A stretch of 29,595 nucleotides of DNA from a virus (IMGVR_UViG_2558860274_000007); one strand, 5' to 3'; numbered from the stretch's first letter, positions 5,540 through 26,362 are shown. Made by a program: numbers and translations. Notes: generated from the sequence alone by a model not told the origin.

Positions 5540-6730
5540 TTAATTGCTGTTAACCGAAGTGACCAGATTTGCCAGGTATTTATCGGTAATGCGCTGGCGC
5601 AGGGTCAGATTTTCAAGAGGAGGCACCGGGGTATAGTCGTAGTCGATATACAGTTTTCCGGCCTTGAGGGTTTCCGCATCGTTGGACTCTTCGCTGAACC
5701 AGCAGGTCGCATCCACGATATAGCCGTTTGTTTTCAGCTCACGGAATTTGGCATTGATGCCGTCAACGATGTCGCGAATCAGCGTTGCGGTGATGGGCTT
5801 GTCCACCGCCCACATGTGCGCCTCAGCCATCGTGTCGGCCAGCACCTGCGCGGTGCGGGTGTAGTTTTCAAAGAGGAACAGCGGATCATCAGAGCAGGTA
5901 CGGTTACCCCAGAAGCGGAAACCGTCACGGCGAATCAGCGTTGTGATGCCTGACTCGTTAAGCAGGTCAGCATCGGTGCCGGACTCCTGCAAATCCCAGA
6001 ATACGGACGCGCTGATGCCGGTAACACCGTTCACCCCGACGTTGGACAGCGTTTTATGCCAGCCCTGCTCCTGGTCGATTTTAGCGCGCAGACCCAGCGC
6101 ACGGGCGGTGGCATACGCGGTGGCGGTGGTACTGGCGACCGTATCCCATGCGAGGAAATCCGGCCAGATGACCATCAGCTCACGCTGGCTGAAATTCTGG
6201 CGGTAGGCTTTCACCTCGGAAATGGTTTTACAGCCCCATGCGCTGATATACCCGAAAGCGCGCAGCTTCTGACAGACTGATGCCAGTGCAACAGCCACCT
6301 CTTTGGTGTCCAGTCCCGGCACGCCGAGAATACGCGGTTTAACACCGGTTACCGACTCTGCCGCCAGCAGGGCCTTCAGTCCGGTGTACTGACCGTTTTC
6401 GTCAGTGGTGCCGATGATATTGGAAACGGTCTGCGCGAGTTTCGTTTCTTCGTCTTCGCCGGTGCCGTCTTCCACACGTACGACAACGGTGACCGGTTTT
6501 GACTGGTCGGCGATAGCCTGCAACGACGCCGCCAGCGTGCCTTTTTTACCGGCCTTTGCAATTGCACTCTGCACATTGGTAATCAGCACCGGTTTATTGA
6601 GGGGGAAGATTTCCGCATCCGCATCGCTGGCCGTGCAGACCATGCCAACAATGGCGGTGGATACGGTGGAAATGACGCGGGTGCCGTCGTTAATCTCCAG
6701 CACCTGCACGCCGTGATGATAGTCACTCAT
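5540..6730 (-). CDS. FI: Contractile tail sheath protein FI, 396 aa
   Basis: 396-aa ORF MSDYHHGVQVLEINDGTRVISTVSTAIVGMV...; GGAG ribosome-binding site about 8 nt upstream of the ATG. Confidence 0.93.
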   Translation of the reverse strand: MSDYHHGVQVLEINDGTRVISTVSTAIVGMVCTASDADAEIFPLNKPVLITNVQSAIAKAGKKGTLAASLQAIADQSKPVTVVVRVEDGTGEDEETKLAQTVSNIIGTTDENGQYTGLKALLAAESVTGVKPRILGVPGLDTKEVAVALASVCQKLRAFGYISAWGCKTISEVKAYRQNFSQRELMVIWPDFLAWDTVASTTATAYATARALGLRAKIDQEQGWHKTLSNVGVNGVTGISASVFWDLQESGTDADLLNESGITTLIRRDGFRFWGNRTCSDDPLFLFENYTRTAQVLADTMAEAHMWAVDKPITATLIRDIVDGINAKFRELKTNGYIVDATCWFSEESNDAETLKAGKLYIDYDYTPVPPLENLTLRQRITDKYLANLVTSVNSN

Positions 6731-7049: not shown

Positions 7050-7949
7050 TCAAAGAATTAGCACTTGCTCTTCACTAGAAACTATGGTTCTGACTTCACG
7101 CTCAAATGTTGGATCCATTATCATTTTTCTATTTGTTGGAATAGTAAATTTACCGAGTACCATGACAATGCTACTCAACGGAAATAATTTTGGAGTAACA
7201 TTTCCTAATTGAATCGTAGGATATATATTAAAGCCCCCTTTTATCCTCATTGGCGAACCTTCAATGAAGTGTCGATAATTAAATTTCGCCATAGGGATTC
7301 TCGCCACATGCACTTTCATAATTACAGCAACCTGAGCTATTTTTACTTTCTGGAGGTAAGTTGACAATCGTTCTAACTGCGTTGTTTCATAGAAAAAATC
7401 AGACCACGTTACAGTACTTGTTCCAGTAACAATTTTTATGCTGTTTCTCTTGTTGGGGTGAGCTTTTCCATATTCATAGATCTCCCGTAAGCTATCCATG
7501 TTCTTCACATAGGGGGCTTTCCGACCTCTCTTGACATAAACGCGGTCTGTAGTATCAGAAGGTGGATTTGCCTGCATAGCTGCAGCTTTTCTGCTTAATT
7601 TAGAGATATCATCTTCATCGAGTATATGTATACGGAATATATTATTACCTGTGGCAAGCGCACGGCTGATATCATGACTGGAATCACTTGCATAAATTGT
7701 ATTCAATCCTGAAGTTCCATACTGACATAATTTGTCATGCGTGAAATTTTTTTCCAGTCTAAAGAAGGCGGGGATATGCAAGGTTTTATTAAAACTCCGA
7801 CGAATATGGCTTTTGACATACACCAAATGAGCAGAGCAATTTGGGTCAGGACATTTGAGTGGATAGGGATTAACACTATAATTAAAAGTATTTACATTTA
7901 CTAAAATCTGATTGTTATCAATAGCCTGAGTTATACGAATACCACTCAT
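7050..7949 (-). CDS. Hypothetical 299-aa protein of unknown function at the Z/fun-equivalent position (between FI and G); candidate accessory or defence gene
   Basis: Long ORF that is clearly AT-rich compared with the flanking tail genes. GGAGGAG ribosome-binding site a few nt before the ATG. N-terminal Cys/His cluster (C-PDPN-C...H...H...C). No family recognised by eye. Confidence 0.75.
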   Translation of the reverse strand: MSGIRITQAIDNNQILVNVNTFNYSVNPYPLKCPDPNCSAHLVYVKSHIRRSFNKTLHIPAFFRLEKNFTHDKLCQYGTSGLNTIYASDSSHDISRALATGNNIFRIHILDEDDISKLSRKAAAMQANPPSDTTDRVYVKRGRKAPYVKNMDSLREIYEYGKAHPNKRNSIKIVTGTSTVTWSDFFYETTQLERLSTYLQKVKIAQVAVIMKVHVARIPMAKFNYRHFIEGSPMRIKGGFNIYPTIQLGNVTPKLFPLSSIVMVLGKFTIPTNRKMIMDPTFEREVRTIVSSEEQVLIL

Positions 7950-8164: not shown

Positions 8165-8692
8165 TTATTGCGGCATTTCCGGCCATTCAGGATTTGCAGG
8201 ATCCACACGGCTGACCAGAACGCTGTAGCGTTCCCATGACTCCAGTCGTGCACGTTCCTCATCCGTCGCCATATTCAGCCTGACAGCGCGTTCCAGTGGC
8301 TGAATAACGCTTTCCGCTTCGGAAAGTAACGCGGCCTTTTGTGATTCTGCCTGTTGTTGCTGTTCATCTGCCGTATAAATCCGTTTAACCACAGCACCAT
8401 CCTTAAACATCCATTTACCTGAGTCGTCAGCACGTCGATTGGAGGTAATATCAGGAACCTCAACAACGCTAAAACCTTCAGGATTAAGCGTTGAAGCATC
8501 TCTGGTGATGGCGACAATAATATTATTTTCATCGTAAACAATCTTTATTGTGTCTGGCTGAAAGTTCTTCACTTCCTCATACCAGTTTTTTCCGTCTTCG
8601 GACCATAACCAGATAACATCAAAATTCTTTGTTAGCTGATATTGTTCTTTTGTTTTTGGATTACCTGACTTAATGTTCTTTAAATGCTGCAT
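8165..8692 (-). CDS. G: Tail fiber assembly protein G, 175 aa
   Basis: 175-aa ORF immediately downstream of H. The 5' part is noticeably more AT-rich than the 3' part, as expected for a mosaic host-range module. Confidence 0.9.
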
Positions 8693-12499: not shown

Positions 12500-13131
12500 A
12501 GAGGTCCCCCGGTTGTGCCGCCGCTGTCGCCGGGGTGTTTATGGGTATGCAGTACCTTACCGTTTGATGAGAGCTCACCGCCGGTGTGTTCAATGTTGCC
12601 GCGCATCGTCCCGCCCTTCTGCACTTCCAGCGTGCCGGTAATCAGCCTGTTGGTGCAGACCACCTCCGGTGTGTCCAGGGTGATGCGGGTTGATGCTTTC
12701 ACCATGACCACCGGCACCGTGGCAGTAACAGAATCAGAAGCCGTCACGCTGGCCGTTTTAACTCCGCTTACCGTGAGCGCGCTGGTTTCAGGTTCATACT
12801 CAATCACCGCCCCGTCAGGGAAACGGATATGCAGGGCATCCGCCGACGCAGACGGCGCGGGGTTATCGCCGGAATAAATCCCCGGCAGAACGAACGCCGT
12901 GTCGAGTTCACCACCCACGGCCAGAATCAGCACCTGTTCCCCCACGGAAGGTGCCCACCATGTGCGCGAACGCCCGGCGCGATGGGTCAGCCACTGAAGC
13001 CAGTCGGTGCACATGCCGCCGGTCTGCACACGGCAGCGACCGGCATTAAGGTCGGTTTCGACGATAATGCCGGTGCGGATCATGTTGCGCAGTGCGCGCG
13101 CGAGTTCCTGAATATTTGCGAGAGTGTTCAT
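12496..13131 (-). CDS. V: Baseplate spike/hub protein V, 211 aa
   Basis: Start chosen at the ATG for MNTLANIQELARALRNMIRTG (13131). The track ORF begins six codons earlier at a TTG. Confidence 0.88.
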   Translation of the reverse strand: MNTLANIQELARALRNMIRTGIIVETDLNAGRCRVQTGGMCTDWLQWLTHRAGRSRTWWAPSVGEQVLILAVGGELDTAFVLPGIYSGDNPAPSASADALHIRFPDGAVIEYEPETSALTVSGVKTASVTASDSVTATVPVVMVKASTRITLDTPEVVCTNRLITGTLEVQKGGTMRGNIEHTGGELSSNGKVLHTHKHPGDSGGTTGGPL

Positions 13132-13214
13132 GCGTGTGAGATTGCACAATATATAAAAGTTATGCTATCTGGATTCATTTGTAGAACGACCATACAACAT
13201 TCGAGGAGAGCGTA

Positions 13215-14000
13215 ATGTTCAGTGATAATGTGACTAATGCGTGGTGGTTTATCTCTTTGTATCTATTTTTATTAATAGCATTAACATTTGTTACCTTTGG
13301 TAAAAGTAATCTTATGAGGTTTATTGCACATCATTTCAATCTTGAGTATTCAGACAGAAAGTTAAAAATGCTCGACAAAAAATGGCGCGACATTCAACTA
13401 TTTAAAATAATTAACGGAATCAATGTATCAGGCATCGAAGATGTGAGAATGATACAGCAGGGGCTGATTGATGGAAAACTAAAAACATCGTATTTTTTCC
13501 TTACTCGCTTCTGGGGTGACATAACAAAACCACCACACATAATTAAAACAACAATTGTAATTCTGGCCAGTATTATTTATATTCTCTTCGCATGTTATAT
13601 ACACAATGAACAATCCGCTATAGTAAGGGATGCCATAGGTATACCATATAAAAATATGATGTACTATGTTTATAGTGACAAAGTTCTTTTATCCTTCAAA
13701 AATAAAACGGTTGAATTTAATAAAACTTATAGCCTTGCCGATTGCAAGAGTCTGCAAAACGTATTTATAAAAGACACACTTCCCGAGATCGCCTGCAATA
13801 AGCTCTTACAGCTAAACAAGGAGGACTCCGAATGGTTAAGTCAGGAGATTAAAGATAATAACAGTCACAAAAAAGCATTATTAATACTATCCCTCGTCTA
13901 TTTCACTTCAGGTCTGGTTATATTCCTGTCATATACAAAATTCTTTTACGCCAATAAGAAGGTTTTAGAATACAAAGCATCAAATAAAAATCACTCATAA
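13215..14000 (+). CDS. Hypothetical 261-aa membrane protein with three predicted transmembrane helices, inserted between V and S in the opposite orientation; candidate moron (superinfection exclusion or abortive infection)
   Basis: Very AT-rich ORF with a GAGGAG ribosome-binding site 6 nt before the ATG. Hydrophobic segments AWWFISLYLFLLIALTFVTF, IIKTTIVILASIIYILFACYI and ALLILSLVYFTSGLVIFLSY. A hairpin terminator follows directly. Confidence 0.75.
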   Translation: MFSDNVTNAWWFISLYLFLLIALTFVTFGKSNLMRFIAHHFNLEYSDRKLKMLDKKWRDIQLFKIINGINVSGIEDVRMIQQGLIDGKLKTSYFFLTRFWGDITKPPHIIKTTIVILASIIYILFACYIHNEQSAIVRDAIGIPYKNMMYYVYSDKVLLSFKNKTVEFNKTYSLADCKSLQNVFIKDTLPEIACNKLLQLNKEDSEWLSQEIKDNNSHKKALLILSLVYFTSGLVIFLSYTKFFYANKKVLEYKASNKNHS

Positions 14001-19626: not shown

Positions 19627-19645
19627 GTGCTTTCCCCGCCTCGCC
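19627..19645. other. cos: cos site: 19-nt P2 cohesive-end sequence (reverse complement orientation)
   Basis: gtgctttccccgcctcgcc is the reverse complement of GGCGAGGCGGGGAAAGCAC, the P2 cohesive end as I recall it; it lies just downstream of Q as in P2. Confidence 0.8.
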
Positions 19646-19872
19646 CGCCCGCTTCATGGGTCGGTTTTGATGCAATTCCAAAAGCCGTCCAAACTCTCTT
19701 AGGCTAAATGTCCAACGAGAAAATAGTGCTTTGAATGTGAATGCATTTTAATGCAGAGTTATGCCCAGCATTTTTGTACACTTCGATGTATCAAATGCGC
19801 TGCAAACGATCAAATATGGATGTTTTATCAAGCATCCCCCAAAAGATATTTACATCATCCCATGAGGTTAAG

Positions 19873-20946
19873 ATGGATAACAAAATCGTAGAAATTGAGA
19901 CAAATAAGCTTGATTTTGACCCTAAAAACCCACGTTTCTTTCGTCTCAATGATGCCAGTAACGCTGCAACAGTCATTGAGGAAATGTTAGATGACGAAAG
20001 TGTCCACGATCTAATGCTATCAATCGGTCAGCAAGGTTACTTTCCTGGAGAACCTTTATTGGCAGTAAAAAGCAATGGAAACTACATCGTGGTTGAGGGA
20101 AACAGACGCTTAGCTGCTGTAAAGTTGCTCAATGGAGATCTGCTTCCTCCAAAAAGAAAACTTAAAGGTGTGCAAGAAATCATTGATGATACTACCAATA
20201 AACCTAAGAAGCTTCCCTGCATCATTTATGAAAACCGAGAGGATGTACTGAGATATATCGGTTATCGTCATATAACTGGGGTCAAAGAATGGGACTCATT
20301 ATCTAAAGCCAAATACCTTAAAGAGTTATGTGATACTTTTTATTCACATGAACCTAAAGAGATAGTATTAAAAAATCTGGCTCGTGAGATTGGGAGTAAA
20401 CCACATTATGTTGCAACACTTCTCACTGCACTGAACTTATATGAAGTCGCGCATGACCATGAGTTTTTTAATTTACCCATGAAGGCTTCTGACGTGGAAT
20501 TTTCATATATAACCACAGCTTTGGGATATTCAAAAATCACAAACTGGTTAGGTCTACAGGATAAAAAGGATTTTTTAGACCCAAATTTAAATGAAGAAAA
20601 CCTTAAGCGTTTATTCTCTTGGTTTTTTGTGCCTGACCAACAAGGTAGAACCATCATCGGTGAGTCTCGAAGAATAAAAGATATTGCAGCAGTGGTTGAG
20701 AAACCCGAAGCAATTGAAATTCTCATGAAAAGTTCAAACTTGGATGAAGCATATCTATATACCAGCGGAGAAAGAGAAGCATTAGATAAAGCACTAAACG
20801 CAGCTAGTGTTAAATTAAGAGTAGTTTGGGATATGCTACTTAAAGCTAAAGAATTAACATTAGAGCATGAAGAGGCTGCATCTGAAATTTTTGAGATGTC
20901 AAAAAATATTAGAAATCAGATCAGAAGCAAAAGGGAGGATGATTGA
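19873..20946 (+). CDS. ParB-like (ParB/Srx-fold N-terminal domain) protein, 357 aa; first gene of the cargo cassette after cos
   Basis: Start chosen at the ATG for MDNKIVEIE, with GAGG 5 nt upstream. ParB-like motifs DFDPKNPRF and YIVVEGNRRLAAVKLL. AT-rich. The track ORF starts 44 codons earlier with no ribosome-binding site. Confidence 0.72.
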   Translation: MDNKIVEIETNKLDFDPKNPRFFRLNDASNAATVIEEMLDDESVHDLMLSIGQQGYFPGEPLLAVKSNGNYIVVEGNRRLAAVKLLNGDLLPPKRKLKGVQEIIDDTTNKPKKLPCIIYENREDVLRYIGYRHITGVKEWDSLSKAKYLKELCDTFYSHEPKEIVLKNLAREIGSKPHYVATLLTALNLYEVAHDHEFFNLPMKASDVEFSYITTALGYSKITNWLGLQDKKDFLDPNLNEENLKRLFSWFFVPDQQGRTIIGESRRIKDIAAVVEKPEAIEILMKSSNLDEAYLYTSGEREALDKALNAASVKLRVVWDMLLKAKELTLEHEEAASEIFEMSKNIRNQIRSKREDD

Positions 20947-20950
20947 GATT

Positions 20951-21976
20951 ATGATTACAAATCTTGATTCAATGCCTTCTAATGAGCCTTATTTATGGGC
21001 TGATTATATTGAGATATTGGCCTTAACTAATATCGACAGGTCATTCAGTCGAGGAGACCTATATAGCACACTGCAAGCTCAACCCGAAGCAGTACTAGCT
21101 GAAACAGATGAAGCAGAAGAAGAGGGCGTTTATGATGTTGATGATGAAAATGATACGCCTGTACGCAAGAGAACAAAACGAAGTGTTAGTCGAGCATATA
21201 CTGACAGAAAGTGGAGCTATGCGATAGGCTTCATACGACAACGCATTGATTTATTTGGGGATAGTTACCCTTTTACTTTATCAGAAGACAACGATACTGT
21301 AGAGTTACGTGATATATCAGAAAAGCCACTGGAACATTTAGAAAGACTATATTTAGCTTTACTAATCTGTGCTAACATAAAATATGTCAACATAATGAGC
21401 AGAAGAGAGATAACGCGCAGTTTTGAACTAATTAGTTTACCTATTTTTGAAAGCCTAATGCCTAGCGGTAGCATAATAAAAGCATGCTGGGCTTCTGGTG
21501 GTCAAGCGGCCCCTTACACTGGAACTCTATATAATAAATTTAAGAGTATTGCTTCCGATATCCGTTGCACAGCGAACTTCAAAGAACGAGATTTCAGTCG
21601 AGGAAATAGTGGTGACGGAGGCCTTGACATAATTGCCTGGCATCCAATGGGAGATCAACGAGATGCCATCCCTATTTCTTTTGTTCAGTGTGGCTGTTCT
21701 CAAGAAGAGTGGGAAGCGAAGCAGCTTGAGGCCTCACCTGCGATGCTCTACAGTAAATTCCCCGTAGCTCACCGATGGGCAACTTATTATTTCTTACCTC
21801 AAGATCTACGATGGATAGATGGTGAGTGGGCACATAAAAATAAGTTAGGCGATGCTATTTTTGTTGATCGCCTAAGATTAATCAATTTAACCAGAGCATC
21901 TGATAATATTGATCACAGTCAAAATATTAGCTATCTAGATATCATCCTTGATCCTTCCAGCGCGATCGCTGCTTAG
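20951..21976 (+). CDS. Hypothetical ~340-aa protein with a putative Mrr-like / PD-(D/E)xK nuclease motif; second gene of the cassette
   Basis: C-terminal half contains GNSGDGGLDIIAW...ISFVQCG, which resembles the Mrr catalytic signature (GDGG-I/L-D ... QxK) but lacks the Lys. Acidic low-complexity N-terminal region. AAGGGAGG ribosome-binding site upstream; the start could be the ATG at 20939 or 20951. Overlaps the gene 1 stop. Confidence 0.65.
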   Translation: MITNLDSMPSNEPYLWADYIEILALTNIDRSFSRGDLYSTLQAQPEAVLAETDEAEEEGVYDVDDENDTPVRKRTKRSVSRAYTDRKWSYAIGFIRQRIDLFGDSYPFTLSEDNDTVELRDISEKPLEHLERLYLALLICANIKYVNIMSRREITRSFELISLPIFESLMPSGSIIKACWASGGQAAPYTGTLYNKFKSIASDIRCTANFKERDFSRGNSGDGGLDIIAWHPMGDQRDAIPISFVQCGCSQEEWEAKQLEASPAMLYSKFPVAHRWATYYFLPQDLRWIDGEWAHKNKLGDAIFVDRLRLINLTRASDNIDHSQNISYLDIILDPSSAIAA

Positions 21977-22911
21977 TCCCATAAATCTGGAAGGTTTCTA
22001 GCAACCGCCTCAAACAATGGAGGCGGTACTGCATTACCTACCACAGTATATTTCATATTAATAGAAGCCCGTTCAGTTTCTGGGAAAATTAAATCTCCAA
22101 AACCTTGTAAAATAGCAGCCTCTCGATAGCTAAACCTACGAGCTGGTGCATCCGAAGTAAATTGCCACTTATCAGGTCCCAATTTTTCTAATGTTGGACT
22201 TATTGGATGTAGAGGCATATGTCTAGGATTTGCAACAATTGTTTTAGATATCTGATCCCAATCTTGCCTACGGTTTCGCGATAGATAATACCAATGAAAA
22301 TCGGCGTCATAAAACTCGCCAACAGGCCAAACAGGCATATGCCCAATAGCATCACGAATTGTGGAATATGGTGTCAAACCATCACCATGTGTTGGTTTTG
22401 GAAATTTGTATGTAATACCGTAGTCCTTTCGTATTCCTACGATAAAGATTCGCTTCCTATCTTGGGATACCCCATAATGGGACGCATTCAGAATTTGCGA
22501 GCTTACTGTATAACCTGCTTCTTCGAAAACTTTGAATTGATCCTTTAATAAATGCTCAAAGTTACGCCTTACCATACCAGAGACATTCTCTACAATGAAT
22601 GCTTTTGGCTTAATTTTACTCAAAGCACGGGCAAACTCTAAATATAGTGTATTAATCTTTCTATCTGCCTTCCTTGCCCCACCTTGACTAAATCCTTGGC
22701 AAGGATAGCATCCGATGAGCAACTCAGCAGAAGGGAACGACTGGAGCCCTGAGATATCGCCCAAAATGTAGTCAGTTTCAGGATGGTTTTCTAAGTAAAC
22801 GTCCCTTGCGTAAGGCAAAATATCATTTGCCATAAGCACATTGAAACCTGCGTTCAAAACTCCCGCATCAGAACCACCACATCCAGAAAAAAGTGAAACT
22901 ACAGTTGGCAT
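21973..22911 (-). CDS. DNA (cytosine-5)-methyltransferase, 312 aa, convergent with the two-gene operon
   Basis: Canonical C5-MTase motifs in order: motif I FSGCGG, motif IV PCQGFS, motif VI ENV, motif VIII QDRKR, and C-terminal GNAVPP. Perfect AGGAGG ribosome-binding site 5 nt upstream. Its 3' end overlaps the gene 2 stop by about 4 nt. Confidence 0.9.
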   Translation of the reverse strand: MPTVVSLFSGCGGSDAGVLNAGFNVLMANDILPYARDVYLENHPETDYILGDISGLQSFPSAELLIGCYPCQGFSQGGARKADRKINTLYLEFARALSKIKPKAFIVENVSGMVRRNFEHLLKDQFKVFEEAGYTVSSQILNASHYGVSQDRKRIFIVGIRKDYGITYKFPKPTHGDGLTPYSTIRDAIGHMPVWPVGEFYDADFHWYYLSRNRRQDWDQISKTIVANPRHMPLHPISPTLEKLGPDKWQFTSDAPARRFSYREAAILQGFGDLIFPETERASINMKYTVVGNAVPPPLFEAVARNLPDLWD

Positions 22912-23153
22912 TGACCCCTCCTAAAAACCGACCGCGTATTATAGCGAAACACCCCGTTGGGAAAAGCTAGATTTTGCCAAGTCTTGATATTCTCACGTTT
23001 TAGTAGTTGTGGCCATCTTTAACGAGAAAAAGATAAAATTGACTTCTCATTAATTTTCAATAGGTTTAATTGTAAGCTCAAACTAACGCCTCGCGACACT
23101 CGTTATTCAACCCCGCCAGCCCTGAAAACAAGTTTCACGACTGGCGGCGTTCT

Positions 23154-23360
23154 CTATCGTCTGCGTTGTGGTGGCGCAACTCTGGACTGACCGATATGGT
23201 TAAACCGCCCGTAATTATCCCGGACTATTTCGGCACACCCGACCAGCTCATCGGGCGTCAGATTTTCGTTGACCATAATCCGCTGTAAACGCTGAACAAT
23301 AGCCATCAGCTTGATATTTTTAGTTTTATGGTGCGGTATCTCGCCTGGTATTCTGTGCAT
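23154..23360 (-). CDS. Hypothetical small protein, 68 aa, translationally coupled to the upstream gene
   Basis: ATG for MHRIPGEIPHHKTK overlaps the stop of the upstream gene (TAATG). No recognisable domain. Confidence 0.5.
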   Translation of the reverse strand: MHRIPGEIPHHKTKNIKLMAIVQRLQRIMVNENLTPDELVGCAEIVRDNYGRFNHIGQSRVAPPQRRR

Positions 23361-23812
23361 TATCCAAGCCACCCGTTTTGCTGTGCACGCTCCATCTGTT
23401 CATCTGAATAGTTCCATGCTCCATCCGTGGCAACCATTGCCCCGCCAGACATCCCCGTCTCTGGTTCATACATAACAGCAAGGCCGAGCTGATGCATAAT
23501 TTCATGATTAATTCTGAATACCAAGCCACGCTCACTAAGTTCTTTCCAGTTCACAATCTCATATACGCCTGTATTAAGCAGCTCAATACTTAGCAAGACA
23601 TAATCTTCCAGCCAGTCTGACAGGTCAGTAACATCTGTTATCCGGGCTTCAACCTTTCGCCCCGTAAACACACCCTGTACCCATTCATGCAAAATCAACG
23701 TGTCCCCGCGCTCATAATTACGGTCATTTTTCCGAAACTCTGCGCGTTTCTTTCCTTCCAGCACAAGGTCGAAATATTTTGCGTGCAGCTTTACCTCGTG
23801 AATTTTTGCCAT
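23360..23812 (-). CDS. Hypothetical protein with an N-terminal ASCH/DUF3850-like region and a C-terminal HExxH motif (possible metallopeptidase), about 150 aa
   Basis: MAKIHEVKLHAKYFDLVLEGKKRAEFRKNDRNYERGDTLILHEW is ASCH-like; HEIMHQLG is an HExxH motif. Start overlaps the A stop (ATGA); an alternative start is one codon upstream. Confidence 0.65.
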   Translation of the reverse strand: MAKIHEVKLHAKYFDLVLEGKKRAEFRKNDRNYERGDTLILHEWVQGVFTGRKVEARITDVTDLSDWLEDYVLLSIELLNTGVYEIVNWKELSERGLVFRINHEIMHQLGLAVMYEPETGMSGGAMVATDGAWNYSDEQMERAQQNGWLG

Positions 23813-26097
23813 CATGTCCACTCCATTACTGTTGAGAATCCCGGCCACTCATCAGCGACTGGATACGTGAATTTTTTCCCGTCATAATTTACGGTCGCGC
23901 CACGCGCCAGCGCCTCAAGCTCCCATCGCTGCGGCCTGATACCGTTCTGAGCGAGGTCAACGCGGATACGGGTAATTTGCATTCGTTCCGACCGGGTCAG
24001 TCTGGCCGACGGTGCAATTTCATGTGTTTTTAACGGGCTTCCGTTTCTCTGCTGACGATTTGGTGTTCTCAGCCCGTGTTTTAATGCGCCCCTGAGCGCC
24101 CTCACGACCTCCGGGTCATTCCATTCGATAACACCGTCATCAACCAGATTAAGCACTGCTGCGGCGTGCTCAGAAGGCGTGGGAGCCGGTAACGAATTAT
24201 CACTGCTGGCAGGCTTTCCACAGTTATTGACAGGACTCCGAGGCGCGGCGATGCCGCTTTTTAAAGTCAAAGGCTCAACGACCGGCACTTTCGGAACAAT
24301 GCGCCAGTCCGTCGTTCTGGTGATATGAATATGACGCGCGCCGAGATGCGGCGCGTAAATGCCGACCACTCTCTCGACTTCTTCCTCGTACTCGTTAACG
24401 TCATCCGACGGGCTACGGGCAACCCTGACAGTCTGACAATCGCGCGGGACATTTGCCCCGCCCTGCGCGCTGATATACAACGCAAAATCACCACTGTCTG
24501 CGGCGGCGCGTGCAGCCTCGACGCGTTCGTCAAACTCATCAGCAATGCTGACGCCGCGAGGCAATTTGCGTAGCTCACGGTAAGCCCCCATTGTCGGCAG
24601 GCCAACCGTTTTAAATTGCGGAATGCGCCACGTTGACGCCCATGCGGTAACAGCCGCGGCAGTATCTTTCAGCGGCCTGCCAGTATCGTTATCGAGCTGA
24701 CCATCCAGTGCATAGCCGTCGATGTTTTTTGAGATGTATTTCGCGATATATCCCGCAGCACCGCCCCGGTTAAGGTGTGTTGCCTGAAAACGGTTTCGCG
24801 CAGCGCCTCTTTCGTCACCATCCTCTTTGAGCGCATAGCGACGCATGATTTCGATAATCTGGTTACGCTGGCGTGGATTACAAAAAAGCATCATATGCCA
24901 GTGCGGCGTTCCGTCGTGGTGTGGCTCGACGACACGCAAACCGTAGACCTGTAAATCATTATCCTTGAATGCCGTGCGCATCAGGCTCCAGATACGGCAG
25001 AGATAACGCTGCGCATCCTTTGGATTAAATGCCTCATCGTTCCAGCCGTGATTAAGCTGAACGGTTTTACTTTCGCCTTTTCCGACCTGACGTGTCGGGT
25101 GATACTTTGACGGCGCGGTCAGCGTGATAAACATCCCCACATCACCCTCTGCGGCGGCGTAACGCTCAATACCGGCAATGGTGTTCATCAGCTCCATCCG
25201 GCGAATTTCAGGATTAGAAATACTGCCCATCACCTTACTGATAAGGTCGATACGCTCGCCGGTTTCCCTGTTTTCAAGGTCACACGATTTAAGAAATTCC
25301 AGATTTGCCTGGCGGCGCGCACGCACATCACGAATGGCATGTTTACTGGCATAAGGAGAACGGTCTTTATTGACCTCCCCGACAGCTATCAGTAACGCTT
25401 CATGCCAGCGCATACGCTGGCCTTTAAGCTGATGAGTCCACCACTCATCGTTAAACAGGCGGGCAATGGCAGAATATGCCTGCCTCGTGATCATCTGCCC
25501 TTTACGGTATTTTTTCCAGTAAAGCGGGGAAATATTGAAAGCACATGCAGCGCCAGCAACATGACCATACAGATGTGCCTGCGCCTCATCCGTAAACAGC
25601 GATTCTTTTTCGCCATGCGCATCCACCCAGGCATCGCAGAGTTCCTCATACATCATGAAAAGCTGCGATGAGATTCGGGCGGCAAACTTTTTCAGCTCCT
25701 TGTCATTCATCCCCGGCAGGCGCGCATACTGGTCGCGCTCTGCCAGAAACAGCAACGACGCGTCGGTGTTCATTTCATGGCGCTGATTCACACGCTCAAT
25801 GCGCGGCCATAAACGACGCTGAAAAGTGGATGTGAGGAAATAAAACCCGTGCACCGGGCTTTTATTGCGCCGGATGTAGTCATAGCGTGAAGTAAACAGC
25901 GAGCGCAAAAAGTAAGGCAGGCGGTTAATCGTGGATAAAACACCTTGCACCTGACGCATCTCGTCACGTGTAAGGGGTCTTTCGCGCCCGACAGCCTCGC
26001 GTGGCGCGTTCCATGCATAAGCACCGGTAAACGCCTTACCGGTGCCTGCGGCAAATGCTGACGGAGGGACAAAACGCCCGGAGGCTTTAACGGCCAT
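23812..26097 (-). CDS. A: Replication initiation protein A (rolling-circle nickase), 761 aa
   Basis: Start at the ATG for MAVKASGRFVPPSAFAAGTGKAF, giving the P2 gpA length of 761 aa. The track ORF extends 17 codons upstream. Confidence 0.93.
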   Translation of the reverse strand: MAVKASGRFVPPSAFAAGTGKAFTGAYAWNAPREAVGRERPLTRDEMRQVQGVLSTINRLPYFLRSLFTSRYDYIRRNKSPVHGFYFLTSTFQRRLWPRIERVNQRHEMNTDASLLFLAERDQYARLPGMNDKELKKFAARISSQLFMMYEELCDAWVDAHGEKESLFTDEAQAHLYGHVAGAACAFNISPLYWKKYRKGQMITRQAYSAIARLFNDEWWTHQLKGQRMRWHEALLIAVGEVNKDRSPYASKHAIRDVRARRQANLEFLKSCDLENRETGERIDLISKVMGSISNPEIRRMELMNTIAGIERYAAAEGDVGMFITLTAPSKYHPTRQVGKGESKTVQLNHGWNDEAFNPKDAQRYLCRIWSLMRTAFKDNDLQVYGLRVVEPHHDGTPHWHMMLFCNPRQRNQIIEIMRRYALKEDGDERGAARNRFQATHLNRGGAAGYIAKYISKNIDGYALDGQLDNDTGRPLKDTAAAVTAWASTWRIPQFKTVGLPTMGAYRELRKLPRGVSIADEFDERVEAARAAADSGDFALYISAQGGANVPRDCQTVRVARSPSDDVNEYEEEVERVVGIYAPHLGARHIHITRTTDWRIVPKVPVVEPLTLKSGIAAPRSPVNNCGKPASSDNSLPAPTPSEHAAAVLNLVDDGVIEWNDPEVVRALRGALKHGLRTPNRQQRNGSPLKTHEIAPSARLTRSERMQITRIRVDLAQNGIRPQRWELEALARGATVNYDGKKFTYPVADEWPGFSTVMEWT

Positions 26098-26362
26098 ATG
26101 AGCCAAAAGCCTCTGAACAACGCCTGCTGAGTTGCTCAACCTGTGCATTTAAATCAGCAAAAGACTTTGCGCTTCCGGTCAGAATATCGTGATGCATCAG
26201 GCCGGAAACGAGCTGGCTTAATTTCGGGTAATAACCAACCACTGCCAGCCATTCCTGACCGGCGTTTTTACCGCTTTCCGCTCTCTTTTTCTCGTGGAGA
26301 ATAAACTGAAAGCTGTCACTGGTAACGACATAACGTTCGCCAATTTCAATACGAATACTCAC
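26087..26362 (-). CDS. Hypothetical early protein (P2 orf83-equivalent position), 91 aa
   Basis: ORF begins with GTG overlapping the stop of the TraR-like gene (GTGA). Start is uncertain. Confidence 0.5.
   Translation of the reverse strand: MSIRIEIGERYVVTSDSFQFILHEKKRAESGKNAGQEWLAVVGYYPKLSQLVSGLMHHDILTGSAKSFADLNAQVEQLSRRCSEAFGSYGR

Follow-up and report, generated by a model that had tools for sequence, protein, structure and literature searches.

A ParB-fold protein, a PD-(D/E)xK-fold protein and a C5-cytosine methyltransferase form a candidate three-gene restriction-modification cassette in phage WPhi

What do three tightly packed genes between cos and the replication genes of a P2-like phage do? 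The stretch of DNA analysed here (IMGVR_UViG_2558860274_000007; "the window" denotes all of its 29,595 nucleotides) is Escherichia phage WPhi, with 100% identity to AY135739/NC_005056, and the 3.5-kb cassette in question (19646-23153) is the right end of WPhi, where the genes are named gp98, gp96 and mth. The WPhi prophage of E. coli W gives a match to the cassette as well. We favour, at somewhat better than even probability, the reading that it is lysogenic-conversion cargo of WPhi encoding a three-gene restriction-modification (RM) system. The trio would then most likely be an uncharacterised kind of RM system, in which an undescribed nuclease family is paired with an obligatory ParB-fold partner.

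The gene structure is well defined. gp98 (19873..20946, plus strand) encodes a 357-aa protein with a ParB/Srx-fold N-terminal domain, a central helical ParB-like body and a C-terminal helical hairpin (residues 300-355). gp96 (20939..21976, plus strand) encodes a protein of 345 aa in RefSeq, or 341 aa if translation starts at 20951, with one or more N-terminal winged-helix-like domains and a C-terminal PD-(D/E)xK fold. The third gene, mth (21973..22911, minus strand), encodes a 312-aa C5-cytosine DNA methyltransferase that is HaeIII-like over its full length, target-recognition domain included. The start of gp96 overlaps the stop codon of gp98 (20944-20946) in an 8-nt overlap, and the 3' end of mth converges on gp96 with a 4-nt overlap (TTAG). 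The initial annotation had described this arrangement as a 357-aa ParB/Srx-fold protein, a second protein of ~340 aa whose start overlaps the stop of the first gene, and a complete opposite-strand C5 methyltransferase overlapping that second gene, and it was right on each of these points. The three genes are real rather than chance open reading frames (ORFs), since each has hundreds of homologues at E<1e-70 and the cassette is spread in E. coli.

The strongest evidence for the RM reading is the linkage of the three genes, and it is because of this linkage that the reading is favoured. A gp98-like gene, a gp96-like gene and a C5 methylase gene occur together in all 25 of the related loci examined. 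The gene contexts of gp96 or gp98 homologues retrieved for this comparison came from Ramlibacter, Oryzomicrobium, Methylomonas and Dechloromonas, from 13 GTDB species genomes and from a divergent P2-like prophage of E. coli, and each shows the three genes as neighbours. Synteny is strict: in the tblastn tally, 22 of 22 loci have gp98 followed by gp96, with the methylase gene convergent on them. In three distant gp96 relatives (profile E ~1e-43) the C5 methylase gene lies downstream in the same direction, and the gene upstream is gp98-like (37-41% identity, hhalign 1e-54 to 1e-62). Among the hosts are Escherichia, Raoultella, Intestinirhabdus, Methylomonas, Methylococcaceae, Dechloromonas, Gallionella, Sulfurimicrobium, Aquabacterium, Ramlibacter, Oryzomicrobium and Porticoccus, and the settings range from enterobacterial P2-like prophages to chromosomal islands of Beta- and Gammaproteobacteria. 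Co-occurrence, which the initial annotation had proposed to survey at the cos-proximal site of other P2-like prophages, held throughout. Outside the enterobacteria the trio was located in chromosomal islands, with transposases and (twice) Vsr as neighbours, and not in phages. It is therefore a mobile unit in its own right, which P2-like phages have taken up.

Other features of these loci point the same way. Identity falls from the methylase (66-84%) through gp98 (51-64%) to gp96 (41-53%). The overlap between gp98 and gp96, or a spacing of 1-4 nt, recurs across the loci, as does the 4-nt overlap with mth. An IS5 insertion sequence (IS) lies inside gp96 in two E. coli genomes (L028 and L030) and an IS2 between cos and gp98 in a third (L029), and mth is intact in all three. 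The identity gradient, the coupling of gp98 to gp96 and the IS hits that spare mth together amount to the usual behaviour of RM systems. In several of the IS-hit genomes the flanking portal gene is truncated and the cassette survives in a prophage remnant. In the Ramlibacter locus (L002, 6915-11589), the gp96 homologue is separated from a more divergent C5 methylase (44% identity) by two inserted genes, one for Vsr and one for a 1,044-aa protein without annotation.

We wondered what kind of protein gp96 is. As the initial annotation had noted, it carries the motif GDGGLD...FVQC (in full GDGGLD...FVQCGCS), which was taken there as reminiscent of Mrr. At default thresholds gp96 had no match in Pfam, NCBIfam or PADLOC; its isolated domains had no Pfam match even at E 10, the Mrr_cat profile proposed as a check included, and a profile search of the PDB (E 10) returned nothing. 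Aligned to E. coli Mrr by hhalign, only the last strand and helix were matched, at a probability of 10%. The family of gp96 was therefore assigned by structure comparison alone, the sequence searches having all failed. The AlphaFold model is confident (predicted local distance difference test 85.9, predicted template modelling score 0.87) and matches the PD-(D/E)xK restriction enzymes MspJI, NgoMIV, BspD6I, SdaI and EcoT38I; Foldseek agrees, with MspJI (probability 0.99) and EcoT38I.

The residues invariant in the family are G225-D-G-G-x-D230, W234-H235, Q250-C-G-C-S254, K261, E264 and H278: the segment G225...D230 precedes the core strand 231-234, Q250...S254 ends the strand 246-251, and K261 and E264 lie on the next helix. 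The GDGGxD...Q signature resembles that of Mrr, as does the fold, with Gly252 at the canonical lysine position. An exhaustive profile search found 1,462 family representatives at 50% clustering, 424 of them at E<1e-30. The 150 matches listed are free-standing proteins with a length of 300-380 aa in nearly every case, a few shorter fragments aside, and none of ten of them scanned against Pfam had a significant match. On the strength of the predicted structure, gp96 would thus represent a large, diverged, previously undescribed and unannotated nuclease-fold family. Residues ~50-85 of gp96 (window 21085-21190) include a highly acidic, low-confidence insertion of ~31 aa (EAVLAETDEAEEEGVYDVDDENDT...), which only the WPhi-type variants have, the rest of the family lacking it; a DNA mimic or an autoinhibitory loop is conceivable.

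For gp98 we use the RefSeq start at 19873 (WP_000368931). RefSeq does not use a longer ORF (19741-20946), and PHROG and PADLOC alignments begin at residue ~44 of that ORF, leaving the extension without homologue coverage. The protein contains DFDPKNPRF and VVEGNRRLAAVKLL. The suggested ParB_N check gave a weak Pfam match (E 0.026), whereas other profiles and the fold were clear: TIGR00180 matched at E 4e-07, and the PADLOC profile PD-Lambda-5_A matched residues 1-151 with a best E of 3e-24 and accounted for 24 of the 25 PADLOC profiles among the matches listed. Fold comparison identified a ParB/Srx fold with a ParB-like helical body, and gave no informative match for the C-terminal hairpin. 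In 25 homologues, box I (NPRF, residues 19-22) and box II (G76-N-R-R-L-A-A82, after E75) are invariant, the GxxRxxA of box II aligning to GERRxRA of Spo0J. Folds of the ParB-CTPase type bind cytidine, adenosine or guanosine triphosphate (CTP, ATP or GTP), with a specificity that is not predictable from sequence, according to a recent survey (PMC12704722). A ParABS partition system was considered and rejected: neither the cassette nor the related loci contain ParA, and the TIGR00180 score (29.9 bits) is under its cutoff of 58.45.

The methyltransferase gene is intact and full length (PF00145 1e-61, with a TIGR00675 match), and in all 25 loci it adjoins a gene for a PD-(D/E)xK-fold gp96 protein; the cassette is the sole RM-like locus in the window. 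Mth aligns to M.HaeIII at 1.6e-48 over residues 4-307, and all motifs align to M.HaeIII 3-320. Its SRNR and PR residues align to HaeIII R225, R227 and R243, which we take to be the arginines that contact GGCC, and a Prokka-annotated copy of mth bears the name of M.BspRI, another GGCC enzyme. Because the recognition region is HaeIII-like, GGCC or a similar site is probably the target, a reasonable guess from sequence. E. coli W lacks mcrBC and mrr (Archer 2011), and therefore fits as host of an active C5 methylase. The PADLOC profile DruM2 also matched Mth (1e-110); Druantia type II, which that score might indicate, was ruled out, the window having no DruE, DruF or DruG and no large helicase.

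Several observations weigh against an RM system. The best structural neighbours of gp96, MspJI and AspBHI, are modification-dependent enzymes. The structure prediction bore out the nuclease fold proposed for gp96 but not its canonical catalytic lysine: at Q250-C-G252 the sequence has none, and catalysis would need K261 or another residue. K261 and E264, invariant residues of the following helix, could take its place; it may also be that gp96 is inactive or works by another mechanism. In gp98, the glutamate with which ParB hydrolyses CTP (GERR) is an invariant asparagine, Asn77 (GNRR), so the protein may bind a nucleoside triphosphate (NTP) without hydrolysing it, or bind none. The putative GGCC assignment of Mth comes from similarity to M.HaeIII and from those presumed contact residues, and the observed/expected ratio of GGCC in the window is 0.71, a mild and unremarkable depletion. 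Finally, E. coli W was called 'restriction minus', as judged from the hsd/mcr/mrr locus alone (Archer 2011). Site avoidance as a clue to specificity was set aside as uninformative, given the GGCC ratio and the lack of CCGG and GCGC depletion in the window.

The structural neighbours of gp96 bear most directly on a Type IV explanation, in which Mth is an orphan that shields WPhi from GGCC-type enzymes of the host, and gp98 with gp96 forms an unrelated, adjacent nuclease of the Mrr/MspJI kind. MspJI and AspBHI depend on 5-methylcytosine (m5C), the gp96 signature recalls the catalytic signature of Mrr, and ParB-superfamily domains sense modified DNA in GmrSD and SspE. On the other hand, gp96 has no SRA-like base-flipping domain, an m5C-dependent nuclease fixed beside an active C5 methylase would self-destruct, and linkage of the methylase in 25/25 loci, across distant taxa and in both orientations, is unexpected for unrelated neighbours. 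We consider this explanation, which the initial annotation had offered beside an RM-like system, quite improbable; the linkage disfavours it and favours the RM-like system.

The location of the cassette is consistent with defence. It begins directly after cos (19627..19645), a P2-type 19-nt cohesive end (gtgctttccccgcctcgcc) identical to the annotated cosR of P2 (L032, 4076-4094) that marks the edge of the cargo hotspot; window 19646 is where the AY135739 record stops. The last position of the portal gene is 19457, and replication gene A occupies 23812-26148, so that the cassette lies between cos and gene A, in the P2 old/tin hotspot, as the initial annotation had placed it. P2 old/tin is a defence hotspot (Vassallo et al. 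2022, PMC9519451). The description as a packed, AT-rich module also stands, with a G+C (GC) content of 0.37-0.42 in the cassette versus ~0.55 in its flanks. Outside the cassette the phage is very poor in GATC (15 observed, 97 expected, ratio 0.15), whereas the count inside is near expectation (12 observed, 16.5 expected, ratio 0.73). Its AT richness, its freedom from the backbone's extreme GATC avoidance and its old/tin site identify the cassette as foreign cargo. It is found at >=99% identity in 104 of 5,426 complete E. coli genomes, while ~174 further genomes of this set match the methylase part only (90-95% nucleotide identity); these carry a second variant, with 64% protein identity in gp98 and 49% in gp96.

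This location also bears on whether the trio serves defence at all. It could instead serve prophage maintenance or partition, the classical function of the ParB fold, or a DNA-modification pathway that starts from 5-methylcytosine and in which gp98 plays the part of the ATPases DndB and DpdB, which are ParB-like helpers of DNA modification. Yet ParA and parS are lacking, the fold of gp96 is that of a nuclease and not of a transferase, the site is a defence hotspot, and the trio also occurs on chromosomes, where partition is irrelevant. We regard a function outside defence as very improbable.

How would the genes be expressed? An ATGCA-N5-ATGCA element (19741..19755, plus strand), present at a single place in the window, precedes the gp98 start by 118-132 nt and lies in the likely promoter region of gp98-gp96. 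It is kept upstream of gp98 in four diverged P2-borne variants, and P2 has the same repeats 26-52 nt before the mapped starts of the old-tin transcripts (L032, 3953-3979); it was not found in the non-enteric loci of the trio. From these comparisons the element appears to be the cargo promoter region of the P2 backbone and not part of the cassette. A role as gp98 operator or parS was ruled out, since P2 has the motif before old-tin and the non-enteric loci are without it. Irrespective of the cargo carried, P2, WPhi and other P2-like prophages keep such ATGCA repeats, 10-12 bp apart, beside cos. The P2 copies overlap the -35/upstream region of the old-tin promoter. A second ATGCA palindrome lies ~70 bp nearer cos. 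Because gp98-gp96 shares the place, orientation and promoter element of old-tin, it is probably expressed in the lysogen. On the opposite strand, a candidate -10 element (a perfect TATAAT, 22938..22943, minus strand) read from the sequence lies upstream of a ribosome-binding site (GGAGGGG) of mth; a consensus promoter scan did not call it, owing to a weak -35. An imperfect hairpin (23109..23151, minus strand) with 19-nt arms of 84% complementarity follows the ORF 23154-23372 and precedes the mth upstream region. No T-run was seen after it, and it may be a partial terminator that separates mth from early transcription.

The expression signals bear on what we consider the main rival to a three-gene RM system. 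Here gp96 and Mth would be a two-gene Type II RM system, and gp98 a KorB/ParB-like repressor that times or limits restriction and modification in the role of a C-protein. gp98 does have a ParB-like helical DNA-binding body, the cassette contains no small helix-turn-helix C-protein, and gp96 has winged-helix domains of its own for DNA recognition. Against a regulator, gp98 is a large protein of 357 aa, its conservation exceeds that of the nuclease, and its translation is coupled to that of gp96 throughout the loci; outside P2 the trio has no conserved operator, the ATGCA repeats being P2 backbone; and ParB-superfamily domains are fused to the effector in PD-lambda-5 and GmrSD/SspE, which points to a sensor or effector role. 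We think a regulatory gp98 doubtful, at roughly one chance in a handful.

Returning to the favoured three-gene RM system, its working might be as follows. Mth would methylate cytosine at C5 in a short site on host and prophage DNA and so protect it. gp96 would be the endonuclease, binding DNA through its winged-helix domains and cutting unmethylated DNA with its PD-(D/E)xK catalytic domain. gp98, translationally coupled to gp96 and perhaps in complex with it, would be a ParB-like nucleotide- and DNA-binding second subunit of the restriction enzyme. Its most likely role would be NTP-gated sensing of, or loading on, unmethylated DNA, followed by licensing or recruiting gp96 to cut, on the model of ParB/KorB clamps and of the DUF262 sensors of GmrSD and SspE; whether as sensor, NTP-gated loader or regulator, its part is proposed from these likenesses. 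The gp98-gp96 pair would be expressed in the lysogen from the cos-proximal promoter element, and mth, at the end of the early replication unit and with a candidate promoter of its own, could be expressed early enough for methylation to run ahead of restriction in a new host.

A bolder version is possible, though we hold it only tentatively. In it, gp98 is a ParB-type nucleotide-gated DNA clamp that loads at unmethylated sites, slides upon NTP binding and delivers or activates gp96; the trio would be a new class of NTP-dependent RM system, widespread in Proteobacteria and the basis of the 'W' restriction of lambda (E. coli W, WPhi) of 1967. WPhi lysogeny is reported to give W-specific restriction and modification. 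The trio probably comprises the genes behind that host-controlled restriction phenotype of 1967, a link suggested by the title of the reference.

As an RM system, the trio would bring a new combination of subunits to restriction enzymes, with a ParB/Srx-fold partner and a nuclease family of >1,400 diverged members, and would give the ParB-CTPase fold a role in discriminating self from non-self DNA beside a cognate methylase. It would also offer a mechanistic frame for PD-lambda-5 and for other sets of ParB-superfamily protein, methylase and nuclease in P2 hotspots. With the cassette in ~2% of complete E. coli genomes, or ~5% with the second variant, it would matter for gene flow and for phage therapy in clinical lineages. 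Methylation by Mth would make DNA a substrate of McrBC and Mrr, which matters for cloning from such strains.

Other parts of the window also carry candidate cargo or annotation problems. Beyond mth, the minus strand holds a small ORF (23154-23372, the last of the early operon), a DUF3850/ASCH protein and replication gene A. The DUF3850/ASCH + DUF7415 protein (23360-23848, minus strand) is a single 162-aa ORF, given as 150 aa by RefSeq; in the 2002 WPhi record two genes, gp92 and gp91, share this region, so that record may contain a frameshift or an error. DUF3850 is often fused to phage ParB folds, according to the PNAS 2025 ParB survey. A 299-aa ORF (7050-7949, minus strand) lies in an AT-rich island (GC ~0.37) flanked by the tail sheath gene (5540-6730) and the tail-fibre assembly gene (8165-8692). 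The position corresponds to Z/fun of P2, which Vassallo 2022 gives as the second defence hotspot of P2, and the ORF is a cargo candidate; it has no Pfam or PADLOC match, its sole match being phrog_7195 (unknown function). In the late region, ORFs of 128 aa and 261 aa (12829-14000, plus strand) occupy an island of GC 0.37 that looks like another horizontally acquired insert; they too have no Pfam or PADLOC match, and the 261-aa ORF matches phrog_2407 (unknown function).

How does the trio compare with known systems? The initial annotation did not recognise it as a named system, and this held as far as the searches reached: gp96 has no PADLOC 2.0 model, and gp98 matches only the N-terminal domain of PD-Lambda-5_A and part of PDC-M38A. 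PD-lambda-5, the closest validated relative, is an anti-phage system of a ParB-N protein with a HEPN/DUF4145-like tail and a Dam-type methylase, described as a compact RM and abortive infection (Abi) system (Vassallo 2022, PMC9519451); it was cloned in an mrr-deleted host, which its methylase requires (PMC9519451). Like the trio, it is a small cassette with a DNA methylase and an N-terminal ParB-fold protein. Unlike the trio, it has two genes rather than three, its effector is the HEPN/DUF4145-like C-terminus fused to the ParB domain (~440-500 aa) where the trio has a separate PD-(D/E)xK protein, and its methylase is of the Dam type (PF02086, MethyltransfD12 N6-adenine) and not a C5 methylase (PF00145). 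gp98 does not align past ~residue 158 of the PD-Lambda-5_A profiles. The trio is thus not a PD-lambda-5 member, because only the N-terminal domain is shared and the HEPN tail and the Dam-type methylase are both lacking.

The likeness nevertheless raises the question of whether the trio, too, is an RM and Abi hybrid. Mth would then mark self, and gp98 and gp96 would cause indiscriminate DNA damage or growth arrest when triggered by unmethylated replicating DNA or by a phage anti-restriction factor. The homology of the gp98 N-terminal domain to PD-Lambda-5_A speaks for this, as does the protection given by PD-lambda-5, which is broad and strongest against T-even phages with hypermodified DNA. 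Prophage W is reported, in work of 1968, to block the growth of T2 and T4. However, other WPhi cargo genes of unknown function could explain T-even exclusion, the effector here is a restriction-fold DNase and not a HEPN RNase-type domain, the methylase classes differ (C5 here, Dam-type in PD-lambda-5), and sequence does not separate Abi from direct restriction. We therefore hold a hybrid to be unlikely.

Type II RM systems with a C5 methylase (HaeIII/BspRI-type) share with the trio the convergent restriction and modification genes, the HaeIII-like methylase, the PD-(D/E)xK nuclease and an occasional Vsr; the trio differs in its obligatory ParB-fold third gene and in an unannotated nuclease family without the canonical catalytic lysine. 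P2-like phages already carry Type II RM systems, in the P2 variable region as here: phage KL3 has EcoRII-C/Vsr/Dcm, and EcoT38I is a Type II RM system of a P2-like phage. The three-gene logic of the trio recurs in CglI/NgoAVII (R+N) and LlaJI/BsuMI, where a C5 methylase goes with a nuclease subunit and with a partner subunit that depends on nucleotide. Their partners are P-loop/AAA+ motors (SF2 helicase-like, or the McrB GTPase) and their nucleases PLD or McrC, whereas the partner in the trio is a ParB/Srx-fold protein. Type IV enzymes (Mrr, MspJI) stand alone without a cognate methylase, in contrast to the trio, which always has an adjoining C5 methylase.

DUF262-type ParB domains are the DNA sensors of GmrSD, SspE and Menshen (PMC12065111). 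GmrSD/BrxU, SspE, Menshen NsnA and PD-T4-2 (PMC12065111) resemble the trio in pairing a ParB-superfamily NTPase-type domain with a DNase effector and in discriminating modification. They belong to the DUF262 branch (DGxQR), have HNH/DUF1524 or other effectors and usually target modified DNA with no cognate methylase, whereas gp98 belongs to the classical ParB-N branch (GxxRxxA). The whole body of gp98 is shared with the PADLOC candidate PDC-M38A (positions 58-342 of 715 align to residues ~41-327 of gp98, 9e-25), which is twice as long and has an additional, uncharacterised C-terminal half; none of the PDC-M38 models matches gp96. We found no publication on PDC-M38, an unpublished and unvalidated candidate, and our literature search found no paper on a system of ParB, C5 methylase and nuclease. 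The 2025 survey of ParB-CTPase folds reports ParB-methylase fusions to be enriched in prophages, and its passages matched by keyword do not describe the trio (PMC12704722). Among P2 hotspot arrangements, Table S5A of Rousset 2022 lists 'DNA_methylase + hypothetical + ParBc', untested there, and 'ParB' does not appear in that paper's table of tested systems (PMC9122126). The same Table S5A holds a third set in which a ParB-superfamily protein and a C5 methylase go together with a nuclease-type effector (PMC9122126), which suggests that the association seen in WPhi is a recurring design.

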